A stretch of DNA of 64,000 bases from an uncultured bacterium (lineage in GTDB: Bacteria; Verrucomicrobiota; Verrucomicrobiia; Limisphaerales; UBA8199): assembly GCA_963749495.1 (NCBI GenBank), contig CAVVMW010000021.1, positions 32,001-96,000 on the forward strand, in the 5' to 3' direction. Below the pieces are notes generated by a model. That model was not told the origin of the DNA. It worked only from the letters and a program-made list of their open reading frames with translations, and did not search any database. This document shows positions 5,925-56,409 of this stretch, one piece after another (position 1 is the stretch's first letter; the number at the start of each line of letters is the position of its first letter). Position numbers and translations under genes: made by a program.

Positions 5925-6066
5925 TACTGCACCGGACTTTGAGTGACTTCGGTATCTTTGTCGCAGCCTTTGTCGGAGCCTTTGTCGAGTTCAGCCGGAT
6001 TTCGACAAAGGTTTCGACAAAGGCTGCGACAAAGGTCGTGAAAGTCATTCAAAGTCCGGTGCAGTA
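5925..6066. mobile_element. MITE-like element: ~25-bp TIRs ending in TA around a 12-mer palindromic core (family B)
   Basis: TACTGCACCGGACTTTGAGTGACTT ... AAGTCATTCAAAGTCCGGTGCAGTA; core (CCTTTGTCG)n...(CGACAAAGG)n. Confidence 0.75.
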
Positions 6067-13104: not shown

Positions 13105-15599
13105 TTACTGCCCCGGCGCGACGACTTCGAAGGGGATGGCGGGCAGGGTGCCGATGGGGAAACGGCGGCGGTTGGCGGGGGCCTTTTTGCCGGCTGCGGG
13201 CTGGGCATTCTCGGCAAAGGCATTGACGATGAGATTGCCGGCCAGGCCGGGTTTGGCCTTGGCTGCGTCGCAGGCCAGGACCAGTTCCGAGTCCTGATCT
13301 GCGGAGACCACGTCACGGAGGACAATCCCGTCCGGAGGTTGGCTCAGCTCGAACTGGGCCTTGCCAAAGAAGGCCGCGAGAGCGCGGGAAAGCGGGACAC
13401 GCACGCTGCCGCCGGCGGGGAGTCGGACCAGGTCGGGTCTTTGGAATGTGGCCCTGGGCCGTGGGCGGCCAATGACCGCGGCCTGGAGTTCCTGGGCCGG
13501 GACCAGGTGGTGGTAGGCGAAGGCCTGCATCATATCGTCTGCGGGCACGGCCGGGCGGATGACCCTGCGGCCAGCGATGGTGGCCCGCCCTTGGATGGAG
13601 AGGGTGAACGGTTCATCGCTGGGCATTGGCGGGGCGGTGAGCGTGAGGCGGATCTGGTCCTGGCCGGCGGGCACACGGGCGCCACTCAGGGCGAACCCGG
13701 CGGGGGCGTCCTTGAGGGCGAGGGTGATTTCGTTGGTAAACCCGTCTTTGCGCAGCGCATAGACTGTGATCGGGATAGTCGCGCCGGCGCGGAGCGTCAG
13801 GCTGGAGGGGACGACCCGCAGCGCGAAATCGGGCTGGGGATCGCTCAGGCGCAGGCGATACGTGTAGTCCGGGCCGCCTTTGTGCTGGGCGTCGCCCAGA
13901 TGGAGGAAGTAGGTCCCGTCGGCCGGCAGAACGGCCGTTAGATACGAATCGGCGTGGTGCGTGCTGAGGCCCGAACCTTTGTCCTCGAAATCGTCATTGA
14001 AGGCAAGCTGGCGCCCGGTGGCATCGGTCAGCTTGAGCACTGAATCGAGCGGCGAGTCGAGCCGCCGCGCGCAGACTTCGGCCACGACCTGCTCACCGGC
14101 GTGTCCATCGAAGTGGAACAGGTCCCAGTCGCCCGGCGGGTCGATGCGCCCATTGACGATGATGGGGAGGGTGAGCGGTTGGGCGCTCTGCGGGGTGTTG
14201 TTGGGCTCGAGTTCCCGGGTCTCGGGCAAGGTGTCTGCCGCGAACGGAACGAGATTGGAAACCCACTCGCCGTTGCGCACCGAGAGCCAGTGAGTCCCCG
14301 GCTCGTTGAATGAGACGCTGAGCTTGCCGGCAGGCAAGTTCCATCCGGTGACTTCGATGCTGGTCTGGGCGCCGGCCGGGCCACCGAGCGGGAAGATGCC
14401 CGTCACAAAGGGCAACTCGCCGATGGCGATGCGATAGACAAAATCCTCGCGTCCGCGGTAGAGGGCGTCCTTGATGGCGATGGCATACTCGCCGTCCTTG
14501 GGGACTTTGTAGAACAGGACCGGGTCGGGGTGGAAGCGATAGTTATCTTCGTAGGCCAACTCCTTGCCGTGGGAATCGTAGAGCGTCAAGGCGGCCTGGA
14601 ACCACCCGGGCACGGCGTCGGCCAGGTAAGGGATCAACTCCCGCGCGCTGACGGCGATGACCAACTGCTGGCCTGCACGAGCGTGAAAGCGGTAGCGGTC
14701 GACTTGGCCCGGCAGGATTTGGCCGTTGATGACCGCCGGGAGGGTCACGGGCATATCGACCGGCGGTGTGTCGGGGCGTCCGTTGTTGCCTCGGGCCGGC
14801 CTCGGCAAGGGCGGCTGGGCGGGCTCAGGCCGTTTCTGCCGCAACTCGGGGAGCAGGCCCACGCGGAAGAGCAGGGGATTGGAGAGCCCGGTTGCGGTGC
14901 GCAGGCGCAACTCCCGAGTGCCCGGCTCAGCCTCCGCCGCAACGGCAACTTCGAGGCTGACTGTCTCAGCGATCGCGGGATTAGCCGAGCGCCGCTGGAA
15001 GGCAGCCAGTTTCTTGAGGATCTCCTGCACCATTTGCCGGTCCTCGGCGGTCCAGGTGACGTTGGTCGAGCCTGGCTTCTCGGCGGCGTCGGGGCGCTTG
15101 TTGTCCAAAGCGCGCGCGCGCTTGTCCCGCAGTTCTTTGAGTTTCTCTCGCAGGTCGTTGGCCTGTTTGGGGGTCAGCGGCTTCTCCTGCCGGAGGAGGG
15201 TGGCGCGCAGGCTGGCCCGGAGAAATTGGCGTTGGTTGCCCCGTCGAGGAACTGGCCGCCGACGGTCACTTGGAAGGTGGCGCCCTGGCGTCCGCCGGCG
15301 GGATAGACATAGCCGATGTGGGGCGGTGCCGGCTGGCCGTGGGCGGCAAGGCACAGAGCGAGGCAACAGAGAGCGGCGCCAAGGCCGCGCAAGACCACAA
15401 ACGGAGGACCTTTGTCGAAACCTTTGTCGAAACCTTTGTCGAAACCTTTGTCGAAACCTTTGTCGCAGCCTTTGTCGAAACCTTTGTCGGATCGGCCATT
15501 TTTCGACAAAGGCTGCGACAAAGGTGCCGACAAAGGTCCGGACTTGGACCCCCGGCGGCCATCTTTCAACCCTCCGCGCTGAGGCGGATGGGCCCTCAT
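13105..15599 (-). CDS. Secreted PPC-domain (pre-peptidase C-terminal) repeat protein of the DUF1553/DUF1501 cassette; -1 frameshift near 15212
   Basis: Start coupled to the DUF1501 stop (ATGA). Signal peptide then P.IGYVYPAGG.QG; TCC GGG CCA GC CTG lacks one base; downstream frame has LPAVING.I....VD.YRF, E.EPNN and RRL.SPLD repeats. Confidence 0.8.
15408..15538. repeat. Family B 12-mer palindromic core (CCTTTGTCGAAA)n...(CGACAAAGG)n inside the 5' end of the PPC gene
   Basis: Seven tandem 12-mers followed by three inverted units; translates as PLSAPLSQPLSK...DKGFDKGCDKGF. Confidence 0.85.
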
Positions 15600-16939
15600 G
15601 TAATCTCAGCCAATGCCCCGCCGCTGGGCAGGCCCTCGCCGGGAGCGGGGATGGCAGTAACGGCAAGGCCCTGCGGATGGGGCAGCCTGGCTGTGGCGCT
15701 GATGCCCAGCAGTTCGTAGATGCTGTGGATCAGATCGCAGGGATAAACCGGGCGGTCTTTGACTTCTTCGCCTCGAGCGTCGGAGGCCCCGACGAGCTGT
15801 CCGCCCTTGAAACCGCCGCCGGCGACGACGGCGCTGAAGACCTGGCCATAATGACCGCGGCCGCCGTTCCAGGGCTCCTCCCATTGAATCCGTGGGGTGC
15901 GGCCGAACTCGCCGATGACCCAGACGATGGTGCTGTCGAGCAGGCCGCGCTCGGCCAGGTCCTGGAGCAGGGTTGCCAGGCCCTTGTCCAGCTCGGGCAG
16001 TTTGCGGCGCATGGCCGGGAAATTCTGTTTGTGGGTGTCCCAGCCGCCGTTGTTGATAGTCACGCAGGGGACGCCACGTTCGACCAATCGGCGAGCAACC
16101 AGGCAGGATTGGCCGAAGGTGGTCCGGCCGTACTGGTCGCGGAGGGTGTCTTTTTCCTGGGATAGCTCGAACACCTTGCCGGCATCGCCGAGGATGAGGT
16201 CATAGGCCTCGTTCTCGCACTGGGCCAGGGCGTTGAGCCGGGGGTCGCCTTTCATGGCGTGTTCGAGGGTGTTGAGGTTGTGCAGGAGTTGGCGGCGGTT
16301 GCGCTGGCGCTCATCGGAGATGCCCGGCGCCGCGACGCCCTCGACCATGAAGCGGCTCTGGGCAGGGTCGCCGCCCGTGGCAAACGGCTTGTAGCGCGTC
16401 CCCAGGAAACCGGCCTCGGAAAACCGCCCCTGCGGCTGGGTCAGGACGACATAGGGCGGGATCAGGCCCCGATAGCCGGCGTCATAGCCCTTGAACAGCG
16501 AGACCACGGCGCCTACCGAGGGAAAGACGTCGCGCCCGCCGGACATCCGGCCAGTCTGGACGGTATAGGAGGCGGTCTCATGGGCGTTCACACCGTGGGT
16601 CATGCTGCGGATGATGGAGAATTTGTCGGCCTGTTTGGCCAGCAACGGCAGCAACTCGCAAATTCGTGTGCCGGCCACGGTGGCAGCAATCGGCTTATTG
16701 AGCGGGCCGCAGTAATCGTAGCCGGCCTCGGGTTTTGGATCAAAGGTGTCCAGGTGGGGAGGGCCGCCCCCCAACCAGAGCTGGATGACGGCCTTGGCCT
16801 TGGCCGGAGTGGCTGCCAGGACGCGCAGGCCCAGCTTGTCCCACAGCACCGCCCCTGCCACCCCCAAAAACCCAAGCCGCAGGGCCTCCCGCCTCGAGAT
16901 GTCAGGCAAAACCATCCTTGAACTCAACTCGATGCGCAT
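15596..16939 (-). CDS. DUF1501 domain protein (Tat-exported)
   Basis: SRREALRLG, VI.LWL.GGP.HLDTFDPKP, YG.T.FGQSCL.ARRLVE.GV, GWDTH, GEFGRTP. Confidence 0.93.
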   Translation of the reverse strand: MRIELSSRMVLPDISRREALRLGFLGVAGAVLWDKLGLRVLAATPAKAKAVIQLWLGGGPPHLDTFDPKPEAGYDYCGPLNKPIAATVAGTRICELLPLLAKQADKFSIIRSMTHGVNAHETASYTVQTGRMSGGRDVFPSVGAVVSLFKGYDAGYRGLIPPYVVLTQPQGRFSEAGFLGTRYKPFATGGDPAQSRFMVEGVAAPGISDERQRNRRQLLHNLNTLEHAMKGDPRLNALAQCENEAYDLILGDAGKVFELSQEKDTLRDQYGRTTFGQSCLVARRLVERGVPCVTINNGGWDTHKQNFPAMRRKLPELDKGLATLLQDLAERGLLDSTIVWVIGEFGRTPRIQWEEPWNGGRGHYGQVFSAVVAGGGFKGGQLVGASDARGEEVKDRPVYPCDLIHSIYELLGISATARLPHPQGLAVTAIPAPGEGLPSGGALAEIT

Positions 16940-17000
16940 ATCAGGACACTGCTAATTGCAGTTATTCAGACGCTTGCCCAAGAGCGAATGTTACAGCAGG

Positions 17001-17421
17001 ATCATGGAAGAAAGAATCATCAGAAACAGAATCATTTTTGGCAGAACAGAGAGATGCATTGGGCCTGGGATTCATGATGGGTTTGCTTTTCCGAGGTCTT
17101 GCTCCTTACCGTGAAAATGTCCGGAATTCAATTCGCGCATGGTTCAGATTCACCCACTGGAGAAACGGGAGCCTGGTGTGCGCCAGGAACCGGCGTTGGT
17201 GTTGCGCCGCACGATCATGGAAGAAAGAATCATCAGAAACAGAATCATTTTTGGCAGAACGGAGAGATGCATCGGGCCTGGGATTCATGATGGGTTTGCT
17301 TTTCCGAGGTCTTGCTCCTTACCGTGAAAGTGTCCGGAATTCAATTCGCGCATGGTTCAGATTCACCCACTGGAGAAACGGGAGCCTGGTGTGCGCCAGG
17401 AACCGGCGTTGGTGTTGCGCC
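17001..17421. repeat. 213-bp tandem duplication of the GxxExxY gene 3' end and downstream flank
   Basis: 17001-17208 vs 17214-17421, with three transition mismatches seen. Confidence 0.9.
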
Positions 17422-18122
17422 ATCTGCTCGATGCTCTTGGTAACTGCTGTGAGCCTGAACGCCGTGTCCCCAATTACCAGCCCAATCTTCTGCCTGCCGA
17501 GCAAACGAACCCCGTCCCATAGTTCCACTTCACCGGGCTCTGCATTCGGACCATTGAGCAAATGGTTCATCGCCTCGCGGTAGGGGCTTATCTCGAGGAA
17601 TGCCCCCCAGTCCTCCAATAGCTCGATGAGCTTCCTCCTGAACGTGCCGCTTGCCACGTCGAGCTCACGCCATTCATCGTCCACAATGCAAAACCTCCTC
17701 CTCTGGGCCGCGTCCAGGGTAGTCGATACAAACTCCCATTCGACGCTCGGTGGGCGAAGATTGAGCAGTTTTCCATGCCTCAAACCGGCCATCAGGAGGT
17801 AATTGAGCGCCTGTGCGCGGTGGGCTGGGCTGATGGCCTCCGCTGTCTTCACCTCAACCATCATCCCATGCGCGAAGACAAGGTCCATGTAGTAGTCCTT
17901 TCGAAAGGACTCATGCGTAAGACGAATCCGGACCTCCTTCTCAATTGGTGCAATGCCTGATTCGGTGCATCGCCCTGCGATAGCCCCCTTGTACAACTCC
18001 TCATCCAAGAGCCTGCCAAATTCGTTGTGGACCGCGAAAACGGCCCCCATGACTCGCTTGTCCATTGCATGGAACTCCTCCTGGCCAAAGGCCCGTATTT
18101 CCGTGGCAACTTCGATCGGCAT
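17319..18122 (-). CDS. GxxExxY family PD-(D/E)XK nuclease-like protein, long form with a degenerate second copy of the domain
   Basis: VHNEFGRLLDEELY, Y.MDLV...MMVEVK, H.AQALNYL..AGL..G.LLN; second half WGAFLEISPY..H.RRFL.HT.L....WVN. Confidence 0.85.
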   Translation of the reverse strand: MPIEVATEIRAFGQEEFHAMDKRVMGAVFAVHNEFGRLLDEELYKGAIAGRCTESGIAPIEKEVRIRLTHESFRKDYYMDLVFAHGMMVEVKTAEAISPAHRAQALNYLLMAGLRHGKLLNLRPPSVEWEFVSTTLDAAQRRRFCIVDDEWRELDVASGTFRRKLIELLEDWGAFLEISPYREAMNHLLNGPNAEPGEVELWDGVRLLGRQKIGLVIGDTAFRLTAVTKSIEQMAQHQRRFLAHTRLPFLQWVNLNHARIEFRTLSR

Positions 18123-22261: not shown

Positions 22262-22492
22262 CGAATGACGAATGACGAATGACGAATGACGAATGCGTCG
22301 GCTATCGGCTATTGTCTATCGGCTATCTGGCGCGAATGACGAATGACGAATGACGAATGCGTCGGCTATCGGCTATTGTCTATCGGCTATCTGGCGCGAA
22401 TGACGAATGACGAATGACGAATGACGAATGACGAACGCAGAGGGCCTTCTTCCCATGATTTTGCCACCCATGATTTTGCCTTCCCTGATTTT
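22262..22492. repeat. Higher-order heptamer array [(GAATGAC)n-(TCGGCTA)-block]x2-(GAATGAC)n plus a 15-nt-period ATGATTTTGCC triplet
   Basis: Read directly in the divergent intergenic region. Confidence 0.9.
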
Positions 22493-22515: not shown

Positions 22516-24297
22516 ATGCGAACACTCGCTTCACTGCTGCTGGTTTGCCTGGCCGCCGGTTGTGCCAGGATGTCTCCCTCGACCGGCCGGGACGCGGCCG
22601 GCGCCGACGCCGCCTTCACACAGTTGGCCGAGGAGTATCTCTCCGGCTACCTCGCCTGGCGTCCGCAGACCGGCACGGCGCTCGGGTTTCACCAGTATGA
22701 TGGGAAGCTCACCGATTACAGCCCCATCTCGCTCCAGACCGAATTGGCCCGGCTCAAATCGTTCGACTCGAGGCTGGCGGGGCTGAACACCAGCCGGCTG
22801 GGCCCGCGCGCCTTTCACGATTACCGCATCCTGCGCGCGGCCATCCAGCGGGAAATCTTCAGCTTCGACCGGATGCGGGTCTTTTGGCAAAACCCGATGA
22901 CCTACGCCGGCGCCCTGGACGTGAGCGTCTATATCAAGCGCGACTTTGCGCCGCTCCAGGAGCGGGTCGGCTCGATCCTGGGCCTTCTGGACCAGGCGCC
23001 GGCGCTCTTCGGGGCGGCGCGGGCCAACTTGGCCGACTCGCTGCCGCGCCCGCAAATCGAGACCGCCATCGAACAGGCGGAGGGCGCCGCGGAGTTCCTG
23101 GCCAAAGACCTGGTCCAGGCACTCAAGGACGTGAAAAACCCCGGGCTCATGGAGCAATTCAACGCGTCCAACCAGCGCGCCATCCAGGCCCTGCGCGACT
23201 ACGCCGCCTGGCTCAAGGAGCAGAAGCTGCCCAAGGCCAACGACCGCTACGCCCTGGGCCGCGAGAAATACATGGAACTGCTCCAATACGGCGAGTTAGT
23301 GAGTGCCTCGCCGGAGCGATTGCTGGAGATCGGCCTGCGCGAGTTGCGCCGCCAGCAGGAGGTCTTTGCCAGCGCCGCCCGGCAGATCGATCCGGCCCGC
23401 AAGCCCACGGAGGTGTTCCAGGCCATCCAACGCGACCATCCCACCGAGCAGAGCCTCATTGCCGACACGGCGCGAGACCTCGAGAGCATCCGCCGGTTCC
23501 TGGTCCAGCGCCGCCTGATCACCCTGCCTTCACAAGTCCGCCCGCAAGTGGCCGAGACCCCGCAGTTCCTGCGCGCCACCAGCTTCGCCTCGATGGACAC
23601 GCCCGGCCCGTTCGAGACCCGGGCCACCGAGGCCTACTATTACGTCACGCCCGTGGAACCCGATTGGACGCCTGCCCAGAAAGACGAATGGCTCACTGCC
23701 TTCAACTACTACACCACCAACGTGGTCTCCATCCACGAGGTCTATCCGGGCCACTATGTCCAGTTCCTCTGCCTGAAGGCCTCGCCGGCCGGCAAGGTCG
23801 AGAAGATCTTCTCCAGCTATGCCTTTGTCGAGGGCTGGGCCCATTACGCCGAGCAAATGATGCTCGATGAAGGCTTCGGCCGGGGCGGCGCCGCAATCGC
23901 CCAACGCGAGGACTTGGTCCGCGCGGCCAAATACCGCATGGCCCAGGCCGACGAAGCCCTCCTGCGCGTCTGCCGGCTCTGCGTCTCCATCCAAATGCAC
24001 TGCCAGGGCATGACCGTGGACCAGGCCGCCCAATTCTTCCAGGACAATTGCTATTACCAGCCAAAACCCTCGCGCGCCGAGGCCGTGCGCGGCACCTTCG
24101 ACCCCGAATACCTCTATTACACGCTGGGCAAGATGGAACTGCTCAAGCTGCGCGACGACTGCCGCAAACAGGAGGGCGCGGGCTTCACGCTCCAAAAATT
24201 CCACGACGAACTCCTGCGCCACGGCGCGCCCCCGGTCCGCTTGCTGAGGGAAATCATGCTCAAAGACAGAGCCGCGTGGGACCAGGCCATCGAATAG
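22516..24297 (+). CDS. DUF885 family lipoprotein (putative metallopeptidase)
   Basis: Lipobox LAAGC; HEVYPGHYVQ, FVEGWAHYAEQMM and Y..YT.GK..L..LR motifs. Confidence 0.92.
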   Translation: MRTLASLLLVCLAAGCARMSPSTGRDAAGADAAFTQLAEEYLSGYLAWRPQTGTALGFHQYDGKLTDYSPISLQTELARLKSFDSRLAGLNTSRLGPRAFHDYRILRAAIQREIFSFDRMRVFWQNPMTYAGALDVSVYIKRDFAPLQERVGSILGLLDQAPALFGAARANLADSLPRPQIETAIEQAEGAAEFLAKDLVQALKDVKNPGLMEQFNASNQRAIQALRDYAAWLKEQKLPKANDRYALGREKYMELLQYGELVSASPERLLEIGLRELRRQQEVFASAARQIDPARKPTEVFQAIQRDHPTEQSLIADTARDLESIRRFLVQRRLITLPSQVRPQVAETPQFLRATSFASMDTPGPFETRATEAYYYVTPVEPDWTPAQKDEWLTAFNYYTTNVVSIHEVYPGHYVQFLCLKASPAGKVEKIFSSYAFVEGWAHYAEQMMLDEGFGRGGAAIAQREDLVRAAKYRMAQADEALLRVCRLCVSIQMHCQGMTVDQAAQFFQDNCYYQPKPSRAEAVRGTFDPEYLYYTLGKMELLKLRDDCRKQEGAGFTLQKFHDELLRHGAPPVRLLREIMLKDRAAWDQAIE

Positions 24298-24401
24298 TGC
24301 GGAGTGCGGAGTGCGGAATGCGGAATCCTTCGGAGGAAGGGAGACGGAGGGTGGAGGGCGGAATGACGAATGACGAATGACGAATGACGAATGACGAATG
24401 A
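24297..24401. repeat. Composite heptamer element copy A (partial), upstream of lexA
   Basis: (GCGGAGT)n-GAATCCTTCGGAGGAAGGGAGACGG..-(GAATGAC)n; direct repeat of 30345-30435 and reverse complement of 28690-28775. Confidence 0.85.
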
Positions 24402-24423
24402 GCCCGCAGTCAGTAGTCAGTAG

Positions 24424-24570
24424 CTAGAGCCTGTCCCCAAAGCCCCGCGAGTGGGGGACCTTTGTCGCAGCCTTTGTCGAAACCTTTGTCGGATTGGCCC
24501 TTTTTCGACAAAGGCGCCGACAAAGGCTGCGACAAAGGTTCGGAACCAGGGCTTTTGGGACAGGCTCCAG
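24424..24570. mobile_element. MITE-like element: family B core with different, IS-like TIRs
   Basis: CTAGAGCCTGTCCCCAAAGCCC ... GGGCTTTTGGGACAGGCTCCAG around (CCTTTGTCG)n/(CGACAAAGG)n. Confidence 0.75.
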
Positions 24571-24619
24571 CCACTGACTCCCTCGGTTTTTTTATTGTTG
24601 ACAAGCGCGGCCTTCATAT

Positions 24620-24633
24620 TGGACACTTGTTCA
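24620..24633. promoter_or_regulatory. Candidate LexA operator (TGGACACTTGTTCA) just before the lexA start; TTGACA at 24598-24603
   Basis: Near-perfect palindrome TGAACA-N2-TGTTCA with one mismatch, containing GAAC/GTTC-type half-sites. Confidence 0.45.
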
Positions 24634-24635
24634 GT

Positions 24636-25268
24636 ATGAAGGAACTGACGAAGAGACAACGCCAGGTCCTGGAGTTCATCCAGGACCGCCAGGATGCAGC
24701 GGGCCTCGTTCCGACCTACCGCGAGATAGCCGCGCATTTCGGTTTCAACAGTCCGAACGCAGTGCTGGCGCACGTCAAGGCCCTGCAGAGCAAGGGGTTT
24801 TTGAAAAACCAGCCGGGCCGCGCCCGGACTTTCCAGGTGATGAATCCCAGCGCGCCGAGGCACCGGTTGCGGCCGCGCATCCTCTCGGTGCCCATCTACG
24901 GCACCATCCCTGCCGGTGTCCCGATCGAGGCCGTCCAGGAAGACGAGGGGTGCGTGCTGATCGACGTGGAGACGCTGGGGATTCGGCCGAGCGCCCGCAC
25001 CTTTGGCTTGAAGGTCCGGGGCGATTCCATGCTCGGCAAGAACATCGTGGACGGCGACATCGCCATCATCGAGCATGGCCTGGCGCCGCGTCCCGGCGAC
25101 GTGGTGGCCGCGCTCATCAACGGGCAGGTCACGCTCAAGACTTTTGTCGTGCAGCGGGGCAAGGCATTTTTGCGCGCGGAAAATCCCCGCTATTCGAACC
25201 TGGTCCCCCAGGAAGAACTGCAAGTCCAGGGCGTTATGGTGGCCCTGGTGCGCAGGCGGAAAGGCTAA
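24636..25268 (+). CDS. lexA: SOS repressor LexA
   Basis: LTKRQ..VL.FI, PT.REIA..FG..SPNAV..H..AL..KG.L, G.IPAG.P (Ala-Gly cleavage site), V.GDSM (Ser), TLK (Lys). Confidence 0.95.
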   Translation: MKELTKRQRQVLEFIQDRQDAAGLVPTYREIAAHFGFNSPNAVLAHVKALQSKGFLKNQPGRARTFQVMNPSAPRHRLRPRILSVPIYGTIPAGVPIEAVQEDEGCVLIDVETLGIRPSARTFGLKVRGDSMLGKNIVDGDIAIIEHGLAPRPGDVVAALINGQVTLKTFVVQRGKAFLRAENPRYSNLVPQEELQVQGVMVALVRRRKG

Positions 25269-25486
25269 AGGCTGAAGGCTAAAGGCTAAAGGTGAGGGAC
25301 GAATGACAAATGACAAATGACAAATGACGAATGACGAATGACGAAGGGGGGCCGAGCAGGGAAGGGCGCGAAGCGTTTTGGACTGGCGCAGTCCAAAACC
25401 TGGCGGCCTGGATACCGAGTGCCGACGGGCGCCGCCTCGTCTCCGCTTCGTCATTCGTCATTTGTCATTCGTCATTCGTCATTCGA
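25261..25486. repeat. (GGCTAAA)n at the lexA stop, then inverted (GAATGAC)n...(GTCATTC)n arrays enclosing a collapsed family A palindrome
   Basis: 25299-25344 vs 25447-25486 are inverted; GTTTTGGACTGGCGCAGTCCAAAAC at 25375-25399. Confidence 0.85.
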
Positions 25487-25518
25487 CCCTCGTCTCTCGA
25501 CCCTCGGCCCTCTTCGCC

Positions 25519-28500
25519 ATGACGGAATCTCGACAGCGGGCCAGAGCGATCGTGCATCTGGATGCGGATGCGTTTTTCGCCTCGGTAGAGCAGGCGGCGG
25601 ACGCGCGGCTGCGCGGCAGGCCCGTGGCTGTGGGGGGCGACAAGCGCGGCATCATTGCCTCGGCCTCCTACGAGGCGCGCAAGTTTGGCATTTACACGCC
25701 CATGCCCACCGCCCTGGCGCGCCGGCTCTGCCCCAGGCTGGTGCTCCTGCCGGGCGACTTCGACAAGTATGAGCTCTTTTCGCGGCTGATGTTTTCGTAT
25801 GCCTACGATTTCACGCCGGACGTGGAGATCGGCTCGATTGACGAGGGATATTTCGATTTGACGGGGTCGCGGCGGCCGGCGCTGAGCATTGCCGAGACGA
25901 TCCGGCAGGCGATCCGGCAGGCGCTCCGGCTGTCGGTCAGCGAGGGCATCGCTGCCAACAAACTGGTCAGCCAGATCGCCTCGAAGCTGAACAAACCCGC
26001 GGCGTTTCAATTCGTGCCGGGCGGGCAGGAGGGGCAATTTTTGGCGCCGCTGGCCAACCAATGGCTGCCGGGAATCGGCCCCCGGACGGCGGCGCAGTTG
26101 AATGCGGCCGGCCTGGCGCGCATCGGCCAGGTCGCCTGCACGCCGCTGGACCTGCTGGGGTTGCTGGTGGGCAACCAGGCGCCGCAGTTGCACCGCTTTG
26201 CCTTGGGCCAGGATGAGCGGCCGGTCATCCCGGCGCGCGCCCCGGCCAAGTCCTACGGCCAACAGGAGACCTTTGCGGCGGACACCACCGACCAAGAGTT
26301 CCTGGAGGCGGCCTTGCAGCGGATGGCGGACCACCTCATGGCCAAAGTGCGCGCGGACGGCAAGAGCATCCGCACCCTCACGGTCAAGGTCCGCTACAAC
26401 GACATGGACGAGGAGCAGGCGAGCGAGAGCCTGGCCGAGCCCACGGACCTGGAAACCGAAATCTATACCCGCGTCATCCTGCTCCTGCGCCGGGCCTGGA
26501 AACGCCGGGTCAGCCTCCGCCTGGTCTCGCTCAAGCTGGACAATGTCTATGACGGCCCTTTCCGGAGCGGGCTGGCCCTGGACACCGCCGCCCGCCGCCA
26601 CGACGCCCAGCAGCGCCTGGCCGGCGCAGTCGATCAGTTACGCGAAAAATATGGCCGCAGCGCCCTCCTCCGGGGACACGACTTCGTCTTAGCCGAGTCA
26701 GTCCACAGTCCAGAGTCCACAGTCCACAGTCCACAGTCCGGAAGCCGGAACGCGGAGGACGGAAGACGGAGGACGGAAGACGGAGGGCGGAAGACGGAAT
26801 GCGGACTCCGGACTCGGGAATTTGAGATCTCGGATCTGAAATCTGATATCCGGACTGTGGACTGTGGACTGTGGACTGTGGACCGTGGACTGACTCTGGA
26901 CTGTGGACTACCCCTGAACGTCCACAGTTATTATTCGTTTCTGGATTCCACGCTTTCGATCCGGGCGGTGGTGGATTGGGCCAAACGGCACGAGCTGCCG
27001 GCCATTGCGCTGACCGACCGCAACAACCTGCACGGGGCGGTGGAGTTTGCCCAGGCAGCCGCCGAGGCGGGGATTAAGGCGATTATCGGGGCTGAACTCG
27101 CCTGGCAGGGGCGGCGCGTCTGCCTCTACGTCCAGGACCAGACGGGCTACCGCAATCTCTGCGGCATCTTGAGCGCCAAGACAGCGCGAGGTGGCGAAGA
27201 GGACTCGCCGGGAACGATTGGAGGCCAATACAAGAGACAAAAAGGACAACAGGGACGCCAGGATGCCGACTCAGCGGCAGCCCGGGAGATGAAGATGGAT
27301 TTTCAGGGCAATGTCCGCGCTCCGTTGCGGGCTCCCGCAATTTTCGATTCGCCGGAGCACACCGCCGGTCTGCTGGCGGTGAGCCCCTGTGCCGAACTGG
27401 CCCGGTTTTTTCCCGGCCGGTTCTACCTGGCGGTCGAGAATCCCGATGCCCTGGGCGGGAGGACCGTTCCCCTGCCTTGCGTGCCCTGGTTGCCGGTCCA
27501 TTACGAGCAGCCTGCCGACCGCTGGAAGTACGACGTGGTGCAAAGCATCCGCACGCTGACCCTGCTCCGGCAGCAGCATCCCCAAAAGCGGCTGGGAGGC
27601 GAATATCATTTCCGGTCCGGCGCGGAGCTGCAGCGGCTCTTCGGCGCCCGGCCGGAATGGCTCCAACACAGCCATGAGATTGCCGACCGCTGCCAGTTCG
27701 CCTTCCGCCTGGGCAAACCGCAGTTCCCCGCCTACGCCCCGGCGGACGGCTCGACACCGGCCGCCTTTCTGCGCCGGTTGGCGCTGGAAGGGCTGCAACG
27801 CCGTTACCCCACCGAGCACGCCCGCCTCAAACCCCAGCTCGAAGAGGAGCTGCTCATCATCACCGAGGTCGGCTACGAGGAATACTTCCTGGTCATGTGG
27901 GACATCCTGCAGGAATGCCTGCGGCGCGCCATCCACTGGATCACGCGCGGCAGCGCCGCCGATTCCCTCGTCTGCTATTGCCTGGGCATCAGCGACGTTT
28001 GCCCCATCCGCTTCGATCTCTACTTCCGCCGTTTCCTCAACAAAGAGCGCATGGCGCTCAGCAAGCTGCCCGACATCGATGTGGATTTCGCGCACGACCG
28101 CAAGGACGACGTGCTCGATCTGATCTTCGAAAAATACGGTCCGGCGCACGCGGCCATTGTGGGCGGCTTCTCCACGTTTCAATCGCGCAGCGCCTTTGCC
28201 GAAGCGGCCAAAGTGCTGGGGGTCTCCGAATTCCAGGTCCGCCGCATCACCGAGCGGCTGCCGCATTTCTCGCGCGCCTCCGAGCTGGCCCAAGCCGCCG
28301 CCGCCACCCTCGAGTGCCGCGATTTGCCGCTGGACCAGGAGCCCTACGCCAGCGCGCTGCGGATGGCGCGATTTCTCGACGGCTTTCCCCGCTACCCCAA
28401 GATGCACCCGTGCGGGCTGGTGCTCTCGCGCCAGGCCATGTCCGAAATCACCCCCTGCTTCGTCTCCGCCAAGGGCTATCCCACCACGCACTTCGACATG

Positions 28501-30423
28501 GACTCGGTCGAGGCCGTGGGGTTGATCAAGATGGACATCCTCGCCCAGGGCGGCCTGGCGGTCATGCGCGATGTGTTGGCCGAAGTTAGTCCAGAGTCCA
28601 GAGTCCAGAGTCCACAGTCCGGATATCAGATTTCAGATCCGAGATCTCAAATTCCAGAGTCCGGAGTCCGCACTCCGCATTCGCCATTCGTCATTCGTCA
28701 TTCGTCATTCCCCCCTCCGCCATCCGTCTCCCTTCCTCCGAAGGACTCCGCATTCCGCACTCCGCACTCCGCATTGGCGGACCCGGAGGTCTGGGAGATG
28801 ATCGCCGGGGGCCACGCCCGCGCGGTGCATCACATCGAGAGCCCGGCCATGGTATCGCTCTGCAAAATGTGCGGCGTGCGGGACATTGACACGCTCATCG
28901 CCATCGTCTCGGTGATTCGCCCCGGCGCGGCCAACGAGAGCAAGAAGATGGAATTTGCGCGGCGCTACCAGGGCCTGACCCCGGTGCGCTATGCGCATCC
29001 GTCGCTGGAGCCGTGCCTGCGCAGCACTTACGGCCTGGTGGTCTATGAAGAGCATATCCTGCAGATCTGCGAGGCCTTCGCCGGCCTGCCGCCGGGCCGG
29101 GCGGACGTCCTGCGCCGGGCGCTGGGCAAAGAGAAGGAGGGCCTGATTGCGCAGATCCAGGGTGAGTTCGCCCAGTGCGCCCGGCGGCGCGGCCGCACCG
29201 AGGCCCAGATTACGGAGGTGTGGGGGCTGGTGGCCGGTTTTCGAGGCTATGCCTTCTGCAAGGCGCACAGCACCGCTTACGGCGTCGAGGCCTATCAATC
29301 GGCCTGGCTCAAGCGGTATTACCCGGCCCAGTTCATGGCCGCGGTCCTCACCAACGGCAAAGGCTTTTATGACCCGCTGGTCTATGTGCTCGAATGCCAT
29401 CGGCTGGGCATTTCGCTGCTGCCGCCCTCGGTCAACGACCCCGGCCCGCAATTCAGGGTGCGCGAGGGCAAGATCCGCGTGCCGCTCCTGCGGGTCAAAG
29501 GGCTGACCGGCCGCACTTCTGAAACCATCCTGGCCGAGCGCGACCGCGACCGGTTTTCGTCGCTGCCCGATTTCCTGCTCCGCGTCCAGCCGCTCCCGCA
29601 AGAGATGGAGGCGCTCATCCGGGTGGGGGCCTTCGATGAGTTCGGCAAATCCCGCACGACGCAGGTACCTGGGAATTCAAATCGCTCTGTGCGCAGTCCA
29701 GAGTCAGTCCACAGTCCACAGTCCACAGTCCAGAGTCCACAGTCCACAGTCCAGAGTCCACAGTCCACAGTCCAGAGTCCACAGTCCGGATATCAGATTT
29801 CAGATCCGAGATCTCAAATTCCAGAGTCCGGAGTCCGCACTCTGCATTCGTCATTCGTCATTCGTCATTCGTCATTCCGCCCTCCACCCCCCGCCAGCCT
29901 CTGGCTGTTCCCACCGGGAAACCTCGACCATTTGCCTTCCGTCCCGCTGTCGGAACCCAATCGGCTGCAACGGCTGCGCTGGGAGGAAGAGTTGCTGGGC
30001 TTCCCCGCGAGCGGCCATCCGCTGGAGTTGTTTCCCGATGTGGCCTGGGACACCTATTGTCCCGTCTGCCGGCTCGGCCAGCACGTGGGCCAGCAGGTGG
30101 TCACTTGCGGCCTGGTCATCGAGCAGCGCCTCTTTCACCAGACCACCGGCGAGCCGATGAAGTTCCTGACCCTGGCCGATTGGACCGGCATGGTGGAGAC
30201 CGAACTCTTCGCCCGCACCTACCGCTCCTACGGCCTGAACACGATCCGCTACCGCGTCCTGGAAATCTCGGCCACAGTCGAGCCGTTTGAAAACGGGCGC
30301 GGCTATACCCTGCGCGTGCTCCGGGCGGGCAAGGCGAGGGGGAGGGAATGCGGAGTGCGGAGTGCGGAGTGCGGAGTGCGGAATCCTTCGGAAGGAGGGA
30401 GACGGGGAACGAATGACGAATGA
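25519..30423 (+). CDS. Fused Y-family DNA polymerase IV (DinB) + C-family DnaE2-like DNA polymerase alpha subunit
   Basis: N-terminal HLDADAFFASVEQ, ASYEARKFG, SIDEGY and little-finger domain; then PHP (HSYYSFLDS, ALTDRNNLHG), RGSAA.SLV.Y.LGI, PDIDVDF, HPCG, KMDIL, YEE.I.Q, YAFCKAHS and OB fold. Confidence 0.9.
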   Translation: MTESRQRARAIVHLDADAFFASVEQAADARLRGRPVAVGGDKRGIIASASYEARKFGIYTPMPTALARRLCPRLVLLPGDFDKYELFSRLMFSYAYDFTPDVEIGSIDEGYFDLTGSRRPALSIAETIRQAIRQALRLSVSEGIAANKLVSQIASKLNKPAAFQFVPGGQEGQFLAPLANQWLPGIGPRTAAQLNAAGLARIGQVACTPLDLLGLLVGNQAPQLHRFALGQDERPVIPARAPAKSYGQQETFAADTTDQEFLEAALQRMADHLMAKVRADGKSIRTLTVKVRYNDMDEEQASESLAEPTDLETEIYTRVILLLRRAWKRRVSLRLVSLKLDNVYDGPFRSGLALDTAARRHDAQQRLAGAVDQLREKYGRSALLRGHDFVLAESVHSPESTVHSPQSGSRNAEDGRRRTEDGGRKTECGLRTREFEISDLKSDIRTVDCGLWTVDRGLTLDCGLPLNVHSYYSFLDSTLSIRAVVDWAKRHELPAIALTDRNNLHGAVEFAQAAAEAGIKAIIGAELAWQGRRVCLYVQDQTGYRNLCGILSAKTARGGEEDSPGTIGGQYKRQKGQQGRQDADSAAAREMKMDFQGNVRAPLRAPAIFDSPEHTAGLLAVSPCAELARFFPGRFYLAVENPDALGGRTVPLPCVPWLPVHYEQPADRWKYDVVQSIRTLTLLRQQHPQKRLGGEYHFRSGAELQRLFGARPEWLQHSHEIADRCQFAFRLGKPQFPAYAPADGSTPAAFLRRLALEGLQRRYPTEHARLKPQLEEELLIITEVGYEEYFLVMWDILQECLRRAIHWITRGSAADSLVCYCLGISDVCPIRFDLYFRRFLNKERMALSKLPDIDVDFAHDRKDDVLDLIFEKYGPAHAAIVGGFSTFQSRSAFAEAAKVLGVSEFQVRRITERLPHFSRASELAQAAAATLECRDLPLDQEPYASALRMARFLDGFPRYPKMHPCGLVLSRQAMSEITPCFVSAKGYPTTHFDMDSVEAVGLIKMDILAQGGLAVMRDVLAEVSPESRVQSPQSGYQISDPRSQIPESGVRTPHSPFVIRHSSFPPPPSVSLPPKDSAFRTPHSALADPEVWEMIAGGHARAVHHIESPAMVSLCKMCGVRDIDTLIAIVSVIRPGAANESKKMEFARRYQGLTPVRYAHPSLEPCLRSTYGLVVYEEHILQICEAFAGLPPGRADVLRRALGKEKEGLIAQIQGEFAQCARRRGRTEAQITEVWGLVAGFRGYAFCKAHSTAYGVEAYQSAWLKRYYPAQFMAAVLTNGKGFYDPLVYVLECHRLGISLLPPSVNDPGPQFRVREGKIRVPLLRVKGLTGRTSETILAERDRDRFSSLPDFLLRVQPLPQEMEALIRVGAFDEFGKSRTTQVPGNSNRSVRSPESVHSPQSTVQSPQSTVQSPQSTVQSPQSGYQISDPRSQIPESGVRTLHSSFVIRHSSFRPPPPASLWLFPPGNLDHLPSVPLSEPNRLQRLRWEEELLGFPASGHPLELFPDVAWDTYCPVCRLGQHVGQQVVTCGLVIEQRLFHQTTGEPMKFLTLADWTGMVETELFARTYRSYGLNTIRYRVLEISATVEPFENGRGYTLRVLRAGKARGRECGVRSAECGVRNPSEGGRRGTNDE
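26695..26910. repeat. Composite heptamer element copy B: in-frame insert at the DinB/DnaE linker forming a 48-bp hairpin
   Basis: Arms 26695-26742 and 26849-26896 with two mismatches. Confidence 0.9.
28588..28775. repeat. Composite heptamer element copy C, in-frame inside the DnaE core
   Basis: 17 consecutive 7-nt units from 28591, drifting from CCAGAGT to CGTCATT, between MRDVLAE and DPEVWEMI. Confidence 0.9.
29695..29892. repeat. Composite heptamer element copy D, in-frame between the HhH and OB regions
   Basis: Direct repeat of copy C with a longer CCACAGT/CCAGAGT tract. Confidence 0.9.
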
Positions 30424-30525
30424 CGAATGACGAATGCGGGGTGCAGACTCCGGACTCTGGAATTTGAGATCCGGGATCTGAAATCTGATATCCGGACTGT
30501 GGACTGTGGACTGTGGACTGTGGAC
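30345..30525. repeat. Composite heptamer element copy E, spanning the polymerase stop codon
   Basis: Reverse complement of copy C; supplies the ...ECGVRSAECGVRNPSEGGRRGTNDE* tail. Confidence 0.9.
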
Positions 30526-47494: not shown

Positions 47495-48802
47495 TTAGGA
47501 AAGCTTCAACTCCTCATCGAGCTTACGACGTGCGATGCTCTTGCTCTTCCCCACCGCCCGTTCTTCGAGAACACCATCCTTGATCAGTGCTTTCACCCAG
47601 TCATCGAGTTGGCCCTTTCGGACCTGAAGCGTTTTGGCCAGCTCTTGCAGTTTCGTTGGCTTCTCCAGCGATTCCAGGATCAGAGGCTTAACCGCGTCGT
47701 AAACGGTTGCTGGCGGAGCCGTCTGAGGAACGAATGCCGGCGTATTGGCGATTTCCGGCTTCGGCTCGGGCTGAGTCGCCAGGGATGCCCTCGGCTCGCT
47801 GGGCGTTGCAGCCGCAACCGACATCGGCTCTTCCAAAGCCTCTGGCGACTCGGGTTGACTGCCGGTTGCCTTTTGCAGGACGTCACGCAAACTGCCTGCC
47901 AGCGCGTCGGCCGGAAGCGGCTTCGCGCCCAGCTTCAGCAACTCCGCATTTCCTCTAGGGACAGCCGCGCCGGTTCTGACAAAGATCGTACGTCTTCGTC
48001 TGCGCTGCAACTCCTCCTCAGCACCCGCCCAAGTTCCGCCAGACTGGTAATCAGAACTGACGACCACGGCGAAATCAGAAAGAGCGTAAATGTATTTATT
48101 CCGCCCCATCGCGTTGCCGACGTTGAATCCGGCTTCTGGATTGTACGGCGAAACCAGGACCAGTTGCCCGCCCCGAATTCCTTCCCGGTATTTTCCGGAA
48201 ACCGCCGCCCGTAAGAGACTGTCGGCCATGACCCCAATAACCTTCCCGCCGGCGGAGAAGGCCCCGTGCATCGCGGTCTCATCAACGCCTCGGGCGGCCC
48301 CCGAAATCAACTGCATCCCGCACTGTGCGGCAGAACGGCCCAAGGCCCGTGCGAATTCCTGGCCGTCGGCATCGATGTGGCGCGACCCGACCACCGCAAG
48401 CCCCCCTTGAGAAAGGAGTGTGCCCTCACCCACTCCGTACAGAATCGGCGGCGCATCGCCTCGCAGATGAAGCTTGAGTCTTTGGGGGTAATTCTCGTCG
48501 CCGCGGCACACTACCCAAAGCCCTTTGTTGGTCCACTTCTCGATGGCCATCGCCATCGCCACCCCACGCGCCAGAAGGGTCTTCAGCCGCTCCGCCGGTA
48601 CCGGCGTGAACGCATCATTGAGCACCTCGGCTTTGTCGGCCTTCAGAAGATCAGATGGCCACATTTTCTTGCGGAACAGCCATGTCGCCAACTCATCGTA
48701 TTCCTTGATACTCAGCGGTCCCACCGCTCTCTCGTCGGCGGGACCAAAACGCCCGCACATCAGCAAGATCGCCTTGGCATTATCGGTTATCTGATCGATC
48801 AT
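47495..48802 (-). CDS. DprA/Smf-domain protein with C-terminal wHTH (RqlI-like)
   Basis: YP..L......PP.LY..G, AVVGSR, ISG.ARGVD, AM.RN.YIY.LSD, GGTW.GA; AAGGAG RBS overlaps the helicase stop. Confidence 0.88.
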   Translation of the reverse strand: MIDQITDNAKAILLMCGRFGPADERAVGPLSIKEYDELATWLFRKKMWPSDLLKADKAEVLNDAFTPVPAERLKTLLARGVAMAMAIEKWTNKGLWVVCRGDENYPQRLKLHLRGDAPPILYGVGEGTLLSQGGLAVVGSRHIDADGQEFARALGRSAAQCGMQLISGAARGVDETAMHGAFSAGGKVIGVMADSLLRAAVSGKYREGIRGGQLVLVSPYNPEAGFNVGNAMGRNKYIYALSDFAVVVSSDYQSGGTWAGAEEELQRRRRRTIFVRTGAAVPRGNAELLKLGAKPLPADALAGSLRDVLQKATGSQPESPEALEEPMSVAAATPSEPRASLATQPEPKPEIANTPAFVPQTAPPATVYDAVKPLILESLEKPTKLQELAKTLQVRKGQLDDWVKALIKDGVLEERAVGKSKSIARRKLDEELKLS

Positions 48803-48813
48803 AAGATTGCTCC

Positions 48814-53727: not shown

Positions 53728-54429
53728 ATGCCAGTCGGACTTTTAGGAAAGAAGCTGGGCCAGACCCGCGTCTATAACGCCAAGGGCGTGATCACCCCGG
53801 TGACCATCGTCCTGGTGGGCCCCAATCGCGTTCTCCAGTGCAAGACCGCCGAATCGGACGGCTACAGCGCCGTCCAACTGGGCTTCAGCGACCAAAAGGA
53901 GCAGCGGCTGACCCAGCCGCTGCTGGGCCACATCAAGAAATTCGCCCCCAACGGCCCCGCGGTCAGGCGCATCCGGGAATTCCGCGATTTCTCGAAAGAG
54001 GTCAAACCGGGCGACGTTGTGGGGGCCAACCTGTTTGCCCCCGGCGACTATGTGGACGCCATCGGCATCACCAAAGGGCGGGGTTTCGAGGGGGTGGTGG
54101 GCCGGCATGGCTTTCGCGGCGGCGATTCGACGCACGGGGCCAAGGGGTGGCACCGCCGCGCCGGGGCCATCGGCCAGCGCCTGTTCCCGGGCACCGTCAT
54201 GCGCGGCATGAAGATGCCCGGCCACATGGGCCAGGTCCGCCGCACCACCCAGAACCTCCAGGTCGTTCAAGTCAAGGAGGCCGACAACCTGCTGCTCATC
54301 CGGGGGGCCATTCCGGGGTCAAACGGCGATTATGTGGTGATTCGCGAGTCCAAGAAACGGCCCAAGGGCTGGAAACGGCATGCCGAGCGTCCGGAAAACA
54401 TCAAGAAGGCCGAAGGCAAGAAGAAGTGA
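53728..54429 (+). CDS. rplC: 50S ribosomal protein L3
   Basis: GLLGKKLG.T, DGY.AVQLG, KGRGF.G, GMKMPGHMG. Confidence 0.98.
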   Translation: MPVGLLGKKLGQTRVYNAKGVITPVTIVLVGPNRVLQCKTAESDGYSAVQLGFSDQKEQRLTQPLLGHIKKFAPNGPAVRRIREFRDFSKEVKPGDVVGANLFAPGDYVDAIGITKGRGFEGVVGRHGFRGGDSTHGAKGWHRRAGAIGQRLFPGTVMRGMKMPGHMGQVRRTTQNLQVVQVKEADNLLLIRGAIPGSNGDYVVIRESKKRPKGWKRHAERPENIKKAEGKKK

Positions 54430-54446
54430 TTTGACCTCCTCGAACT

Positions 54447-55079
54447 ATGAAGCTGACGATTAAAGACACCAAAGGGAACAGCCAGGGTGAATTGGAGGTC
54501 ACATTCCCCTTGGTCGAAGGCGGCAAGGGGACGCAGGCCGTTCACGACGTGGTGGTGGCCTACCAGGCCGCCCAGCGGATGGGCACCGCCAGCACCAAGA
54601 CCATGGGCGAGGTCGCCGGCACCGGCAAGAAGCCCTGGCGCCAGAAGGGGACGGGACGGGCCCGAGCCGGGTCGTTCGCATCGCCCCTGTGGCGGGGCGG
54701 CGGCGTGGTTTTCGGGCCTAAACCGCGCGATTTTGGCAAGAAAGTCTCGAGGCAGACTCGCCAACTGGCCCTGCGCAAGGCCCTTTCCGAGCGCCTGAAG
54801 GCGGGCGATATCCTCGTCCTGGACGACCTCAAGCTGGCCTCGCCCCGGACCAAGGAATTCATCGGGGTCCTTTCCGCCCTCGACCTCCAGGGCAGCGCCC
54901 TCATCGTCTCGCAGGCGACGGACAAGAACCTCACGCTGGCTTCCCGCAACGTCCCGAACGTGGCCCTGGCCACCGGCGATTCGCTCAACACCTACGACGT
55001 GTTGCGTCCGGACAAACTCGTATTCACCCGCAGCGCCTTCGAGCAGGTCCAGGCCCGCTTGAACAAGGACAAGGAATGA
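54447..55079 (+). CDS. rplD: 50S ribosomal protein L4
   Basis: [30 protein letters not shown]. Confidence 0.98.
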
Positions 55080-55080
55080 C

Positions 55081-55362
55081 ATGAACCCTTTCGACATCGT
55101 CAGGACGGTGCGTTTGACCGAAAAAGGCACACGCCAGGGGGCCGACTTCAACCAGTACACCGTGATGGCCGACCCCCGGGCCAACAAGTTCCAGATCCGG
55201 CAGGCCGTGCAGGAACTCTTCAAAGTCAAGGTGGTCAGGGTCAACACCATGAACGTCCGGGGCAAACACCGGCGCCAGCGCACCAAACAGGCCGGCCAGG
55301 CCCCGGGCTGGAAGAAGGCCATCGTGACGCTCAAGGAAGGCGACAAGATCGTCCTGACCTGA
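55081..55362 (+). CDS. rplW: 50S ribosomal protein L23
   Basis: TEK, ANK..I..AV..LF.VKV..VNT.N, WKKAIVTL. Confidence 0.97.
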   Translation: MNPFDIVRTVRLTEKGTRQGADFNQYTVMADPRANKFQIRQAVQELFKVKVVRVNTMNVRGKHRRQRTKQAGQAPGWKKAIVTLKEGDKIVLT

Positions 55363-55381
55363 TCTTTTTTGAAAAAGGCTA

Positions 55382-56390: not shown

Positions 56391-56409
56391 TTCCACACTC
56401 TTAACTCCC

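Follow-up and report, generated by a model that had tools for sequence, protein, structure and literature searches.

The 64,000-nt stretch of DNA analysed here (the window; Verrucomicrobiota, UBA8199, assembly GCA_963749495.1, contig CAVVMW010000021.1, positions 32,001-96,000 of the forward strand) carries a gene that joins two DNA polymerases in one chain. From the N-terminus, the product consists of a DinB-type Y-family polymerase, a tail with a weak resemblance to the RecA N-terminus, a linker and a DnaE2-type C-family polymerase. The gene follows lexA on the same strand, and we propose, with a probability of about 70%, that the two genes specify an SOS-controlled, covalently fused two-polymerase enzyme for translesion synthesis.

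The open reading frame (ORF) runs without a stop from a TTG at 25378 to 30423 on the forward strand, as seen in the ORF listing and its translation. Within this frame, the ATG at 25519 yields a product of 1634 amino acids and is the best start, because the resulting N-terminus (MTESRQRARAIVHLDAD) agrees with those of relatives, for example MVEPRQRAIVHLDAD; the database copy of the same protein (P0002) is called from a GTG 11 codons downstream and is 1623 aa long. Pfam places an IMS domain at aa 14-156 (145.1 bits, cut-off 23.2), IMS_C at aa 244-343 (73.9 bits, cut-off 20.7), PHP at aa 466-565, DNA_pol3_alpha at aa 750-1009 (218 bits), the finger domain at aa 1086-1224 and HHH_6 at aa 1297-1381. 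An earlier note on this DNA had described a single ORF of ~1634 aa holding both polymerases, and the ORF listing, translation and Pfam bear it out. The four catalytic motifs that it named are each found in the translation: HLDADAFFA (aa 13-21) and SIDEG (aa 106-110) in the Y-family half, PDIDVD (aa 851-856) and KMDIL (aa 1004-1008) in the C-family half.

The fusion is a family trait of Verrucomicrobiota and is not unique to the genome of the window. With the DinB part as query, 1336 database proteins match (targets of 898-2860 aa, E <= 0.001, 8000 candidates scored), and all of the best 120 contain IMS, IMS_C, PHP and DNA_pol3_alpha, at 70-100% identity over the DinB part. Species-representative genomes gave 467 candidate stretches, of which 445 code for a relative; the locus counts below use the best 80. 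Names of the Verrucomicrobiota lineage (Verrucomicrobi*, Limisphaerales, Pedosphaera, Prosthecobacter or Methylacidimicrobium) are attached to 69 of these, and the bin names of the remaining 11 are unspecific or belong to other phyla, where we suspect mis-binning. Fusions of this kind are common in Verrucomicrobiota.

Nine of the 80 loci end at a contig edge before the DinB part, so that both halves can be seen in 71. All 71 read through the junction in frame and without a stop, and the stop and restart that two separate genes would show there was looked for and seen in none. Only 11 of the 71 loci have an in-frame ATG within the final 30 codons of the linker, and no methionine marks the start of the DnaE half in any of 27 aligned sequences, where the conserved start reads ...[IV]PLN[VL]HSYYSFLDSTLS. 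With the junction in frame throughout and no conserved internal start, these are therefore not two genes read through accidentally, and the single chain supposed in the earlier note is confirmed as a conserved one. The whole fusion span is open in 63 of the 71 loci; the other eight (L004, L017, L026, L039, L040, L067, L074 and L078) are interrupted elsewhere in the gene by a frameshift or in-frame stop, which in no case falls at the junction, and the break in L067 may instead be a second DinB-like match upstream.

Shorter database proteins present a more mixed picture. Among the best 120 matches below 898 aa, 59 reach into PHP and so are truncated fusions, 56 stop between the tail and PHP, and 5 stop before the tail motif; most of the short matches probably end at contig edges. 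Unfused relatives or paralogues may exist, however, since one of the short matches, P0359 (396 aa, 7 contigs), bears the name of a complete DNA polymerase IV. Together with P0291, P0312, P0315, P0335 and P0385 it forms a set of DinB-only proteins of ~395-405 aa that are 68-77% identical to the DinB half and end 11-19 residues past the RGHDF tail, several of them with many member sequences; these may be stand-alone paralogues or split forms. Another entry, P0364 from NCBI, bears the name 'fused DNA polymerase IV/DNA polymerase III subunit alpha, partial', which indicates that annotators already recognise the fused architecture.

In polymerases such as Pol IV and Dpo4, catalysis depends on two aspartates and a glutamate, and an aromatic residue serves as steric gate. 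The Y-family half has the corresponding catalytic residues D15, D108 and E109 along with the aromatic F19/F20, and D15, D17, F19, D108 and E109 are invariant in 37 of 37 aligned fused proteins. The pattern LD.D.FF is found in 118 of 120 database proteins and 65 of 66 loci, S.DE in 120 of 120 and 67 of 68, and the SASYEAR and NK...K motifs are likewise kept. At 257.4 bits, the domain is just above the cut-off (256) of the Pol IV equivalog NF002677, and its scores for the other Pol IV models lie below their cut-offs. Between IMS_C and PHP, Pfam detects neither the ImuB-C domain PF20114 nor any other domain; the ImuB of Komagataeibacter, taken as a control, does show PF20114. Because the acidic residues are kept and an ImuB-C-type domain is absent, the Y-family half is not an ImuB. 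The DinB half is thus apparently active, in line with the suggestion of the earlier note that this partner, unlike ImuB, looks catalytically competent.

The C-family half shows a similar retention of catalytic residues. D852, D854, D856 and D1006 are invariant in the 37 aligned fused proteins, PD.D.D is present in 120 of 120 database proteins and 80 of 80 loci, and K.D.L in 116 of 120 proteins and 80 of 80 loci, the four proteins without it being truncated. In the N-terminal part of the PHP domain, alignment to Taq Pol III alpha (2hpi) reveals that LHQHT has become LNVHS (H to N) and TDHGN has become TDRNN (H to R). No tau-binding domain follows the OB region, family conservation stopping at ...LRAGK, and the stop codon of the fusion gene sits within an (ACGAATG)n array. 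The half passes the C-family superfamily model TIGR00594 (570.7 bits, cut-off 434.35), and misses both the DnaE1 model NF004226 (608 bits, cut-off 1002) and the error-prone polymerase model NF004225 (478.5 bits, cut-off 939), the match to the latter being split by inserts. Of 43 stand-alone proteins scanned, 34 that are short (<1140 aa) or N-terminally truncated also miss NF004225, the best being P0213 at 822.6.

To place this half among its homologues, 1.84 billion representative proteins were searched, giving 37274 matches. Fused proteins rank at the top; below them come stand-alone proteins of ~1000-1100 aa with 35-55% identity, and true DnaE1-like proteins (1157-1298 aa, >1270 bits) rank lower. 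The short stand-alone relatives reach neither DnaE cut-off and align to the DnaE1 model only as far as about position 1060 of its 1146; relatives of the nearest of them, P0130, carry the names Acidobacteria or Bryobacteraceae, and some are called error-prone DNA polymerase by JGI. In a FastTree phylogeny of 127 rows, rooted on E. coli DnaE1 and built without bootstrap, the smallest clade holding both the window protein and the two DnaE2 proteins of imuA-imuB-dnaE2 cassettes comprises 110 rows (support 99) and leaves out E. coli DnaE1, which groups with the long DnaE1-like rows. Within this clade, the cassette DnaE2 proteins and the fused proteins lie in different sub-clades.

The missed NF004226 cut-off, the lack of a tau-binding end and the placement in the tree speak against a DnaE1 identity, and the missed NF004225 cut-off and the separation from the cassette sub-clade against a canonical DnaE2/ImuC identity. 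The label DnaE2 given in the earlier note therefore holds in part: the palm aspartates are intact and the half groups with DnaE2 over DnaE1, but the canonical model is missed. Judged by tree grouping, short architecture and degenerate PHP, the C-family half is a DnaE2 in the broad sense only, because it misses the error-prone polymerase cut-off of NCBIfam, and its position outside the cassette sub-clade is compatible with DnaE2B.

The two polymerases are separated by a conserved tail and a variable linker. An alignment of 41 tails defines a conserved segment after the little finger, AQQRLAGAVDQLREKYGRSALLRGHDF (aa 363-389). When this alignment was compared with E. coli RecA in hhalign, the only match was at 35% identity to residues 7-33 of RecA (E = 0.011, probability 4%), the segment that is the published RecA-NT motif of Y-family tails (PMC6511836). 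Prediction of a complex between the tail alignment and E. coli RecA gives a score of 0.58 (runs 0.59, 0.57 and 0.58) against 0.00 for the best of three controls; 116 of 157 solved complexes come up to this mark, as do 2 of 215 mismatched pairs. Repeat runs share at least 86% of their contacts, with a predicted local distance difference test score (pLDDT) of at least 59 for the partner. E. coli RecA is a stand-in from another host, however, and the solved RecA-RecA interface may lie behind the score. For the tail helix and linker disorder only, we used an AlphaFold2 model of aa 1-564, which is mediocre (mean pLDDT 63.9, 33 sequences): it predicts a helix at aa 358-378 and has pLDDT below 50 at aa 381-478, which fits a disordered tether. 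Across the 71 loci the linker is 26-145 aa long (median 35), with low conservation and differing sequences.

A candidate motif for binding the beta clamp lies near the other end of the protein. Of 81 relatives that have the OB-start landmark, 50 carry the pattern [QS]L[WA]L[LFM] ~30 residues ahead of the OB region, 41 of them as QLWLL; the window has SLWLF. We take its position to be that of the internal clamp-binding motif of DnaE1, and the clamp consensus to be QL[SD]LF; clamp binding by QLWL[LF] would follow from this position and consensus. RecA and the beta clamp are thus likely partners of the fusion enzyme. The enzyme had been described as self-contained, which is doubtful because its DinB part ends in a RecA-N-terminus-like tail and its C-family part keeps the clamp-binding-like motif in these 50 relatives. 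PMC6511836 describes the same pattern for PolY-DnaE2-RecA modules.

The connection to lexA is equally recurrent. Among 61 loci with at least 900 nt of upstream DNA, 58 have lexA upstream on the same strand and 3 have none; the gap to the polymerase gene is 0-400 nt in 49 loci (250 nt in the window) and 0.4-3.9 kb in 8, with a 2-nt overlap in 1. The putative operator was derived from 60 aligned lexA upstream regions, in which the relatives share a palindrome of 16 bp, positioned at -17 to -20 relative to the lexA start (-17 in the window). Exact CTG-N10-CAG is found in 29 of the 60 regions, compared with 63 of 5000 random 60-nt windows, and a further 13 regions, among them that of the window, deviate from it at one position; when at least 6 of 8 palindromic positions are also required of the exact form, the counts are 21 of 60 and 5 of 5000. 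TTGAC lies within the last 80 nt before lexA in most of these 60 regions, and a promoter scan of 24250-25650 flagged no sigma-70-like promoter, the TTGACA before lexA included. The link to LexA proposed in the earlier note therefore gains a TIGR00498 match directly upstream and a putative LexA-type palindrome over its promoter. A Verrucomicrobia LexA motif, TGTTC-N4-GAACA, was rejected as the operator: none lies near lexA, and the window holds 9 where 16.9 are expected.

The spacer between lexA and the polymerase gene is predicted to fold, as RNA, into a long hairpin (-140.3 kcal/mol, z = -9.3), with none of 200 shuffles as stable. No terminator-like site was found by a scan of the forward strand between the two genes. 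At the tip of this hairpin (25375-25399, GTTTTGGACTGGCGCAGTCCAAAAC) are TTGGAC/GTCCAA half-sites like those of the putative operator, spaced by 7 nt, not 4, which may be coincidence. The coordinates of the locus are collected in Table 1.

Table 1 Features of the lexA and fused polymerase locus (coordinates in the window)
Feature	Coordinates	Strand	Basis
TTGACA, -35-like hexamer of lexA promoter	24598..24603	+	Read from sequence
Putative LexA operator TTGGACACTTGTTCAG, 16-bp imperfect palindrome	24619..24634	+	Ends 2 nt before lexA ATG
lexA, 210 aa	24636..25268	+	NCBIfam TIGR00498, 153.4 bits, cut-off 110.95
lexA-polymerase spacer, complementary heptamer arrays GACGAAT x6.9 and TTCGTCA x5.6	25255..25525	+	TRF
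Fused polymerase gene	25519..30423	+	1634 codons + stop; ORF, Pfam, NCBIfam, relatives
DinB-type Y-family polymerase, IMS core (aa 14-156) to little finger (aa 244-343)	25558..26547	+	Pfam, NCBIfam
RecA-N-terminus-like tail, aa 363-390, AQQRLAGAVDQLREKYGRSALLRGHDFV	26605..26688	+	41 aligned tails; hhalign
Variable inter-polymerase linker, aa 392-464	26692..26910	+	Heptamer arrays CAGTCCA x5.9, CGGAAGA x8.7, GGACTGT x8.7 (TRF)
PHP domain, N-terminal part aa 466-565, metal-ligand positions altered	26914..27213	+	Pfam; alignment to 2hpi
C-family palm/thumb core, aa 750-1009, PDIDVD (D852, D854, D856) and KMDIL (D1006)	27766..28545	+	Pfam, 218 bits
Repeat-built insert after KMDIL, aa 1023-1085	28585..28773	+	TRF arrays at 28588, 28678, 28745; low occupancy in relatives
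Fingers (aa 1086-1224) and HhH domain (aa 1297-1381)	28774..29661	+	Pfam
Repeat-built insert after HhH, aa 1383-1455	29665..29883	+	TRF arrays at 29705 (CAGTCCA x11.9) and 29845; low occupancy in relatives
SLWLF, candidate beta-clamp-binding motif	29896..29910	+	Family consensus QLWLL/QLWLF
C-terminal OB-fold region, aa ~1488-1606	29980..30336	+	Aligns to Taq Pol III alpha 984-1091
Repeat-coded C-terminal tail	30337..30423	+	TRF arrays 30345-30382 and 30409-30436; low occupancy in relatives

The closest published system is the putative PolY-DnaE2B-RecA mutasome of Bacteroidetes (Cellulophaga algicola type; Timinskas and Venclovas, NAR 2019, PMC6511836). The available parts of PMC6511836 and PMC12926913 (NAR 2026) describe PolY operons with dnaE2, often with lexA, in genomes without imuA, whose Y-family proteins end in a RecA-NT-like tail; the Bacteroidetes version has two apparently active polymerases, and the Y-family partners of the best-studied relatives lack catalytic activity. 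The PolY-DnaE2B-RecA system shares with the fusion an apparently active Y-family polymerase, whose RecA-N-terminus-like tail is putative in the fusion, a non-canonical DnaE2, the lack of imuA and ImuB-C, and a lexA that is often in the operon. Its polymerases, as presented in these portions of the papers, are separate proteins, whereas the fusion is one chain from a different phylum. The same portions do not mention a covalent fusion, the two uses of 'fused' in PMC12926913 concerning other matters and 'fusion' being absent from it; literature searches yielded no description of a DinB-DnaE2 fusion, and the phrase 'fused DNA polymerase IV' gave no match. By analogy, the fusion may be regarded as a single-chain form of the predicted PolY-DnaE2-RecA-type mutasome that is encoded elsewhere as neighbouring genes.

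The ImuA-ImuB-DnaE2 (ImuC) cassette, represented in our comparisons by the Burkholderia contaminans and Komagataeibacter europaeus plasmid copies, resembles the fusion in its LexA-linked Y-family protein and second, DnaE-type polymerase, and the C-family halves share the major clade. In the cassette, however, ImuB is catalytically dead and carries ImuB-C, ImuA is required and the genes are separate; the fusion is a single chain with the acidic residues in place and without ImuB-C. The earlier note had remarked on the absence of imuA, and for the larger ORFs of the window this is borne out: Pfam finds no imuA, imuB, recA or further polymerase among them. The scan covered 14 ORFs first and then 55 of the 76 ORFs of at least 170 aa that remain after dropping those nested in much longer ones; of the other 21, 12 are within the first 14, and the 9 unscanned overlap a scanned ORF or the lexA and fusion genes. 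The fusion family shows how ImuA and ImuB-C can be dispensed with.

An unfused counterpart lies on the mobilizable plasmid Do28_1 of Desulfosarcina ovata (L082, 1336-7111), in the order lexA, DUF72, polY and a dnaE-like gene. The Y-family gene, annotated as 'hypothetical', and the DnaE homologue of 1033 aa, annotated as Pol III alpha, are 31 nt apart. The gene order, a similar tail (RLVAAIDCIRRRFG...) and the short DnaE homologue recall the fusion. The plasmid differs in having two genes and an inactive PolY, which lacks the acidic residues (HINVADF where the fusion has HLDADAFF), and identity is 28% for the Y-family and 31% for the C-family proteins. In eukaryotes, bypass proceeds in two steps, with a Y-family inserter and Pol zeta as extender. 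The likeness to the fusion would be one of function only, with two specialised polymerases acting in turn on one blocked primer end; Pol zeta is a B-family, multi-subunit complex, unlike the fused C-family chain.

The fused structure and its conservation have good support. In the mechanism that we favour, lexA and the fusion gene would form an operon, with LexA probably repressing it at the 16-bp palindrome that lies over the promoter and next to the lexA start. After DNA damage, RecA-stimulated self-cleavage of LexA would relieve the repression. The enzyme would then be brought to a blocked primer end by binding of RecA to the tail and of the beta clamp to QLWL[LF], and the tether would let the two active sites alternate on the primer end, one inserting opposite the lesion and the other extending. 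That hundreds of species keep such a natural fusion provides independent genetic evidence for physical joint action of the two proteins. A single polypeptide is also convenient for working out which polymerase inserts and which extends, and the parts played by RecA and the clamp.

Several observations weigh against this fused two-polymerase enzyme under SOS control. The activity of both sites is read from motifs, and the relatives compared are fairly close (50-89% identity), so the invariance of the catalytic residues is a weaker sign of selection than it would be in a deep family. The operator of the window is one mismatch away from CTG-N10-CAG, and the spacer hairpin could hinder co-transcription of lexA and the polymerase gene. 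For the tail, the hhalign probability is 4%, neither DUF4113 nor any other Pfam family matches the tail or linker of the DinB part at E values as high as 10, and the predicted complex with RecA is graded as weak support. The candidate clamp motif is absent or altered in 31 of the 81 relatives, 8 of the 71 loci carry a break in the gene, and the 56 short matches without PHP, P0359 among them, may include unfused or split relatives. The genome was viewed through the 64-kb window, also as regards a separate DnaE1. In a different arrangement, the DinB half would be mainly a scaffold like ImuB that brings DnaE2 to RecA and the clamp, leaving all or nearly all of the synthesis to the C-family half. 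The dead Y-family partners of the best-studied relatives, as given in the available parts of PMC6511836 and PMC12926913, and the HINVADF sequence of the unfused Desulfosarcina partner are precedents for it, and the tail and linker are placed exactly as a scaffold would require. We nevertheless consider it unlikely, given that the acidic motifs, the aromatic steric-gate position, SASYEAR and NK...K are kept at the frequencies above and that the DinB domain passes the Pol IV equivalog cut-off, whereas dead Y-family partners shed their catalytic residues quickly, as seen in the unfused Desulfosarcina partner.

The gene might also encode one chain that works as two proteins, through cleavage of the linker or a restart of translation within it. 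A disordered linker that tolerates any sequence would permit this, the linker arrays of the window contain in-frame GTG codons, and there are many short DinB-only database proteins. Yet the linkers share no conserved internal start, ATG being present in only 11 of 71, and no conserved protease-site motif; the DnaE half begins with ...PLNVHS, without methionine in the aligned relatives, and a stop and restart, to be expected in at least some lineages, appears in none of the 71 loci. Two working proteins are accordingly very improbable. We give almost no credence to the idea that dinB and dnaE2 are read through in this genome alone, as an artefact or by decay, after loss of a stop or mis-assembly of repeats. 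The window's junction is indeed made of the same heptamer arrays as nearby intergenic DNA, and the ORF stops in such an array; in other species, however, the junction is open and in frame at all 71 loci, with linkers of 26-145 aa that differ in sequence, the 120 best long matches are all fused, and every repeat-built insert in the ORF preserves the frame.

The fused gene is also a hot spot for short tandem repeats. TRF finds 23 period-7 arrays with a score of at least 50 in the window, of which 10 lie inside the fusion ORF (in the linker, after KMDIL, after HhH and in the C-terminal tail), 6 flank lexA and the fusion gene, and the other 7 lie between genes or at gene ends, as read from the ORF coordinates. 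These array regions span 26699-30436, and also 24296-24401, 25260-25512 and 30494-25. Across the 80 related loci, the fusion gene holds 39 arrays (0.11 per kb), compared with 6 beyond its ends (0.01 per kb), and 17 loci have at least one within the gene. The same variable sites are occupied again and again, by 23 different canonical units in all, so the arrays arose many times. The arrays are often in complementary pairs, and the coding DNA of the linker (26690-26915) is predicted to fold as a hairpin (-132.7 kcal/mol, z = -11.95).

Since a heptamer is not a whole number of codons, adding or losing one unit would shift the reading frame. The fusion gene, with arrays in its linker and surface loops, might then be a contingency locus, in which slippage would make cells alternate, in a heritable and reversible way, between DinB alone, a polymerase truncated before the OB fold and the full enzyme, giving a phase-variable SOS mutasome. 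We regard this as a long shot: breaks at heptamer arrays were sought in the broken loci, and only L004 breaks beside an array, which gives slippage no support. In a milder version, the arrays would act as a fast-evolving length adjuster of the tether between the active sites. Were the hot spot functional, it would tie simple-sequence instability to the control of a mutator enzyme.

Other repeats are scattered over the window. Inverted pairs of 12-mer arrays (ACCTTTGTCGAA / CGACAAAGG..) lie at 5956-6036, 15408-15537 and 24458-24538, the last just upstream of the lexA promoter. A 213-bp unit (x2.0, 98% identity, 16996-17421) overlaps the ORFs at 16918-17583 (+) and 17319-18122 (-), the latter coding for a PD-(D/E)XK nuclease family protein, and a 64-bp unit (x2.4, 100% identity, 22262-22435), which contains (CGAATGA)n arrays, lies between a sodium:solute symporter gene and a DUF885 gene. 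Further along are DprA-family and DEAD/Helicase_C genes on the minus strand and a ribosomal-protein operon (L3, L2, L5, L6, S5, L15) on the plus strand, at 47495-50931 and 53728-63000. Planctomycete-type DUF1501/DUF1549/DUF1553 genes at 15.6-19.8 kb fit a chromosome of the PVC group.

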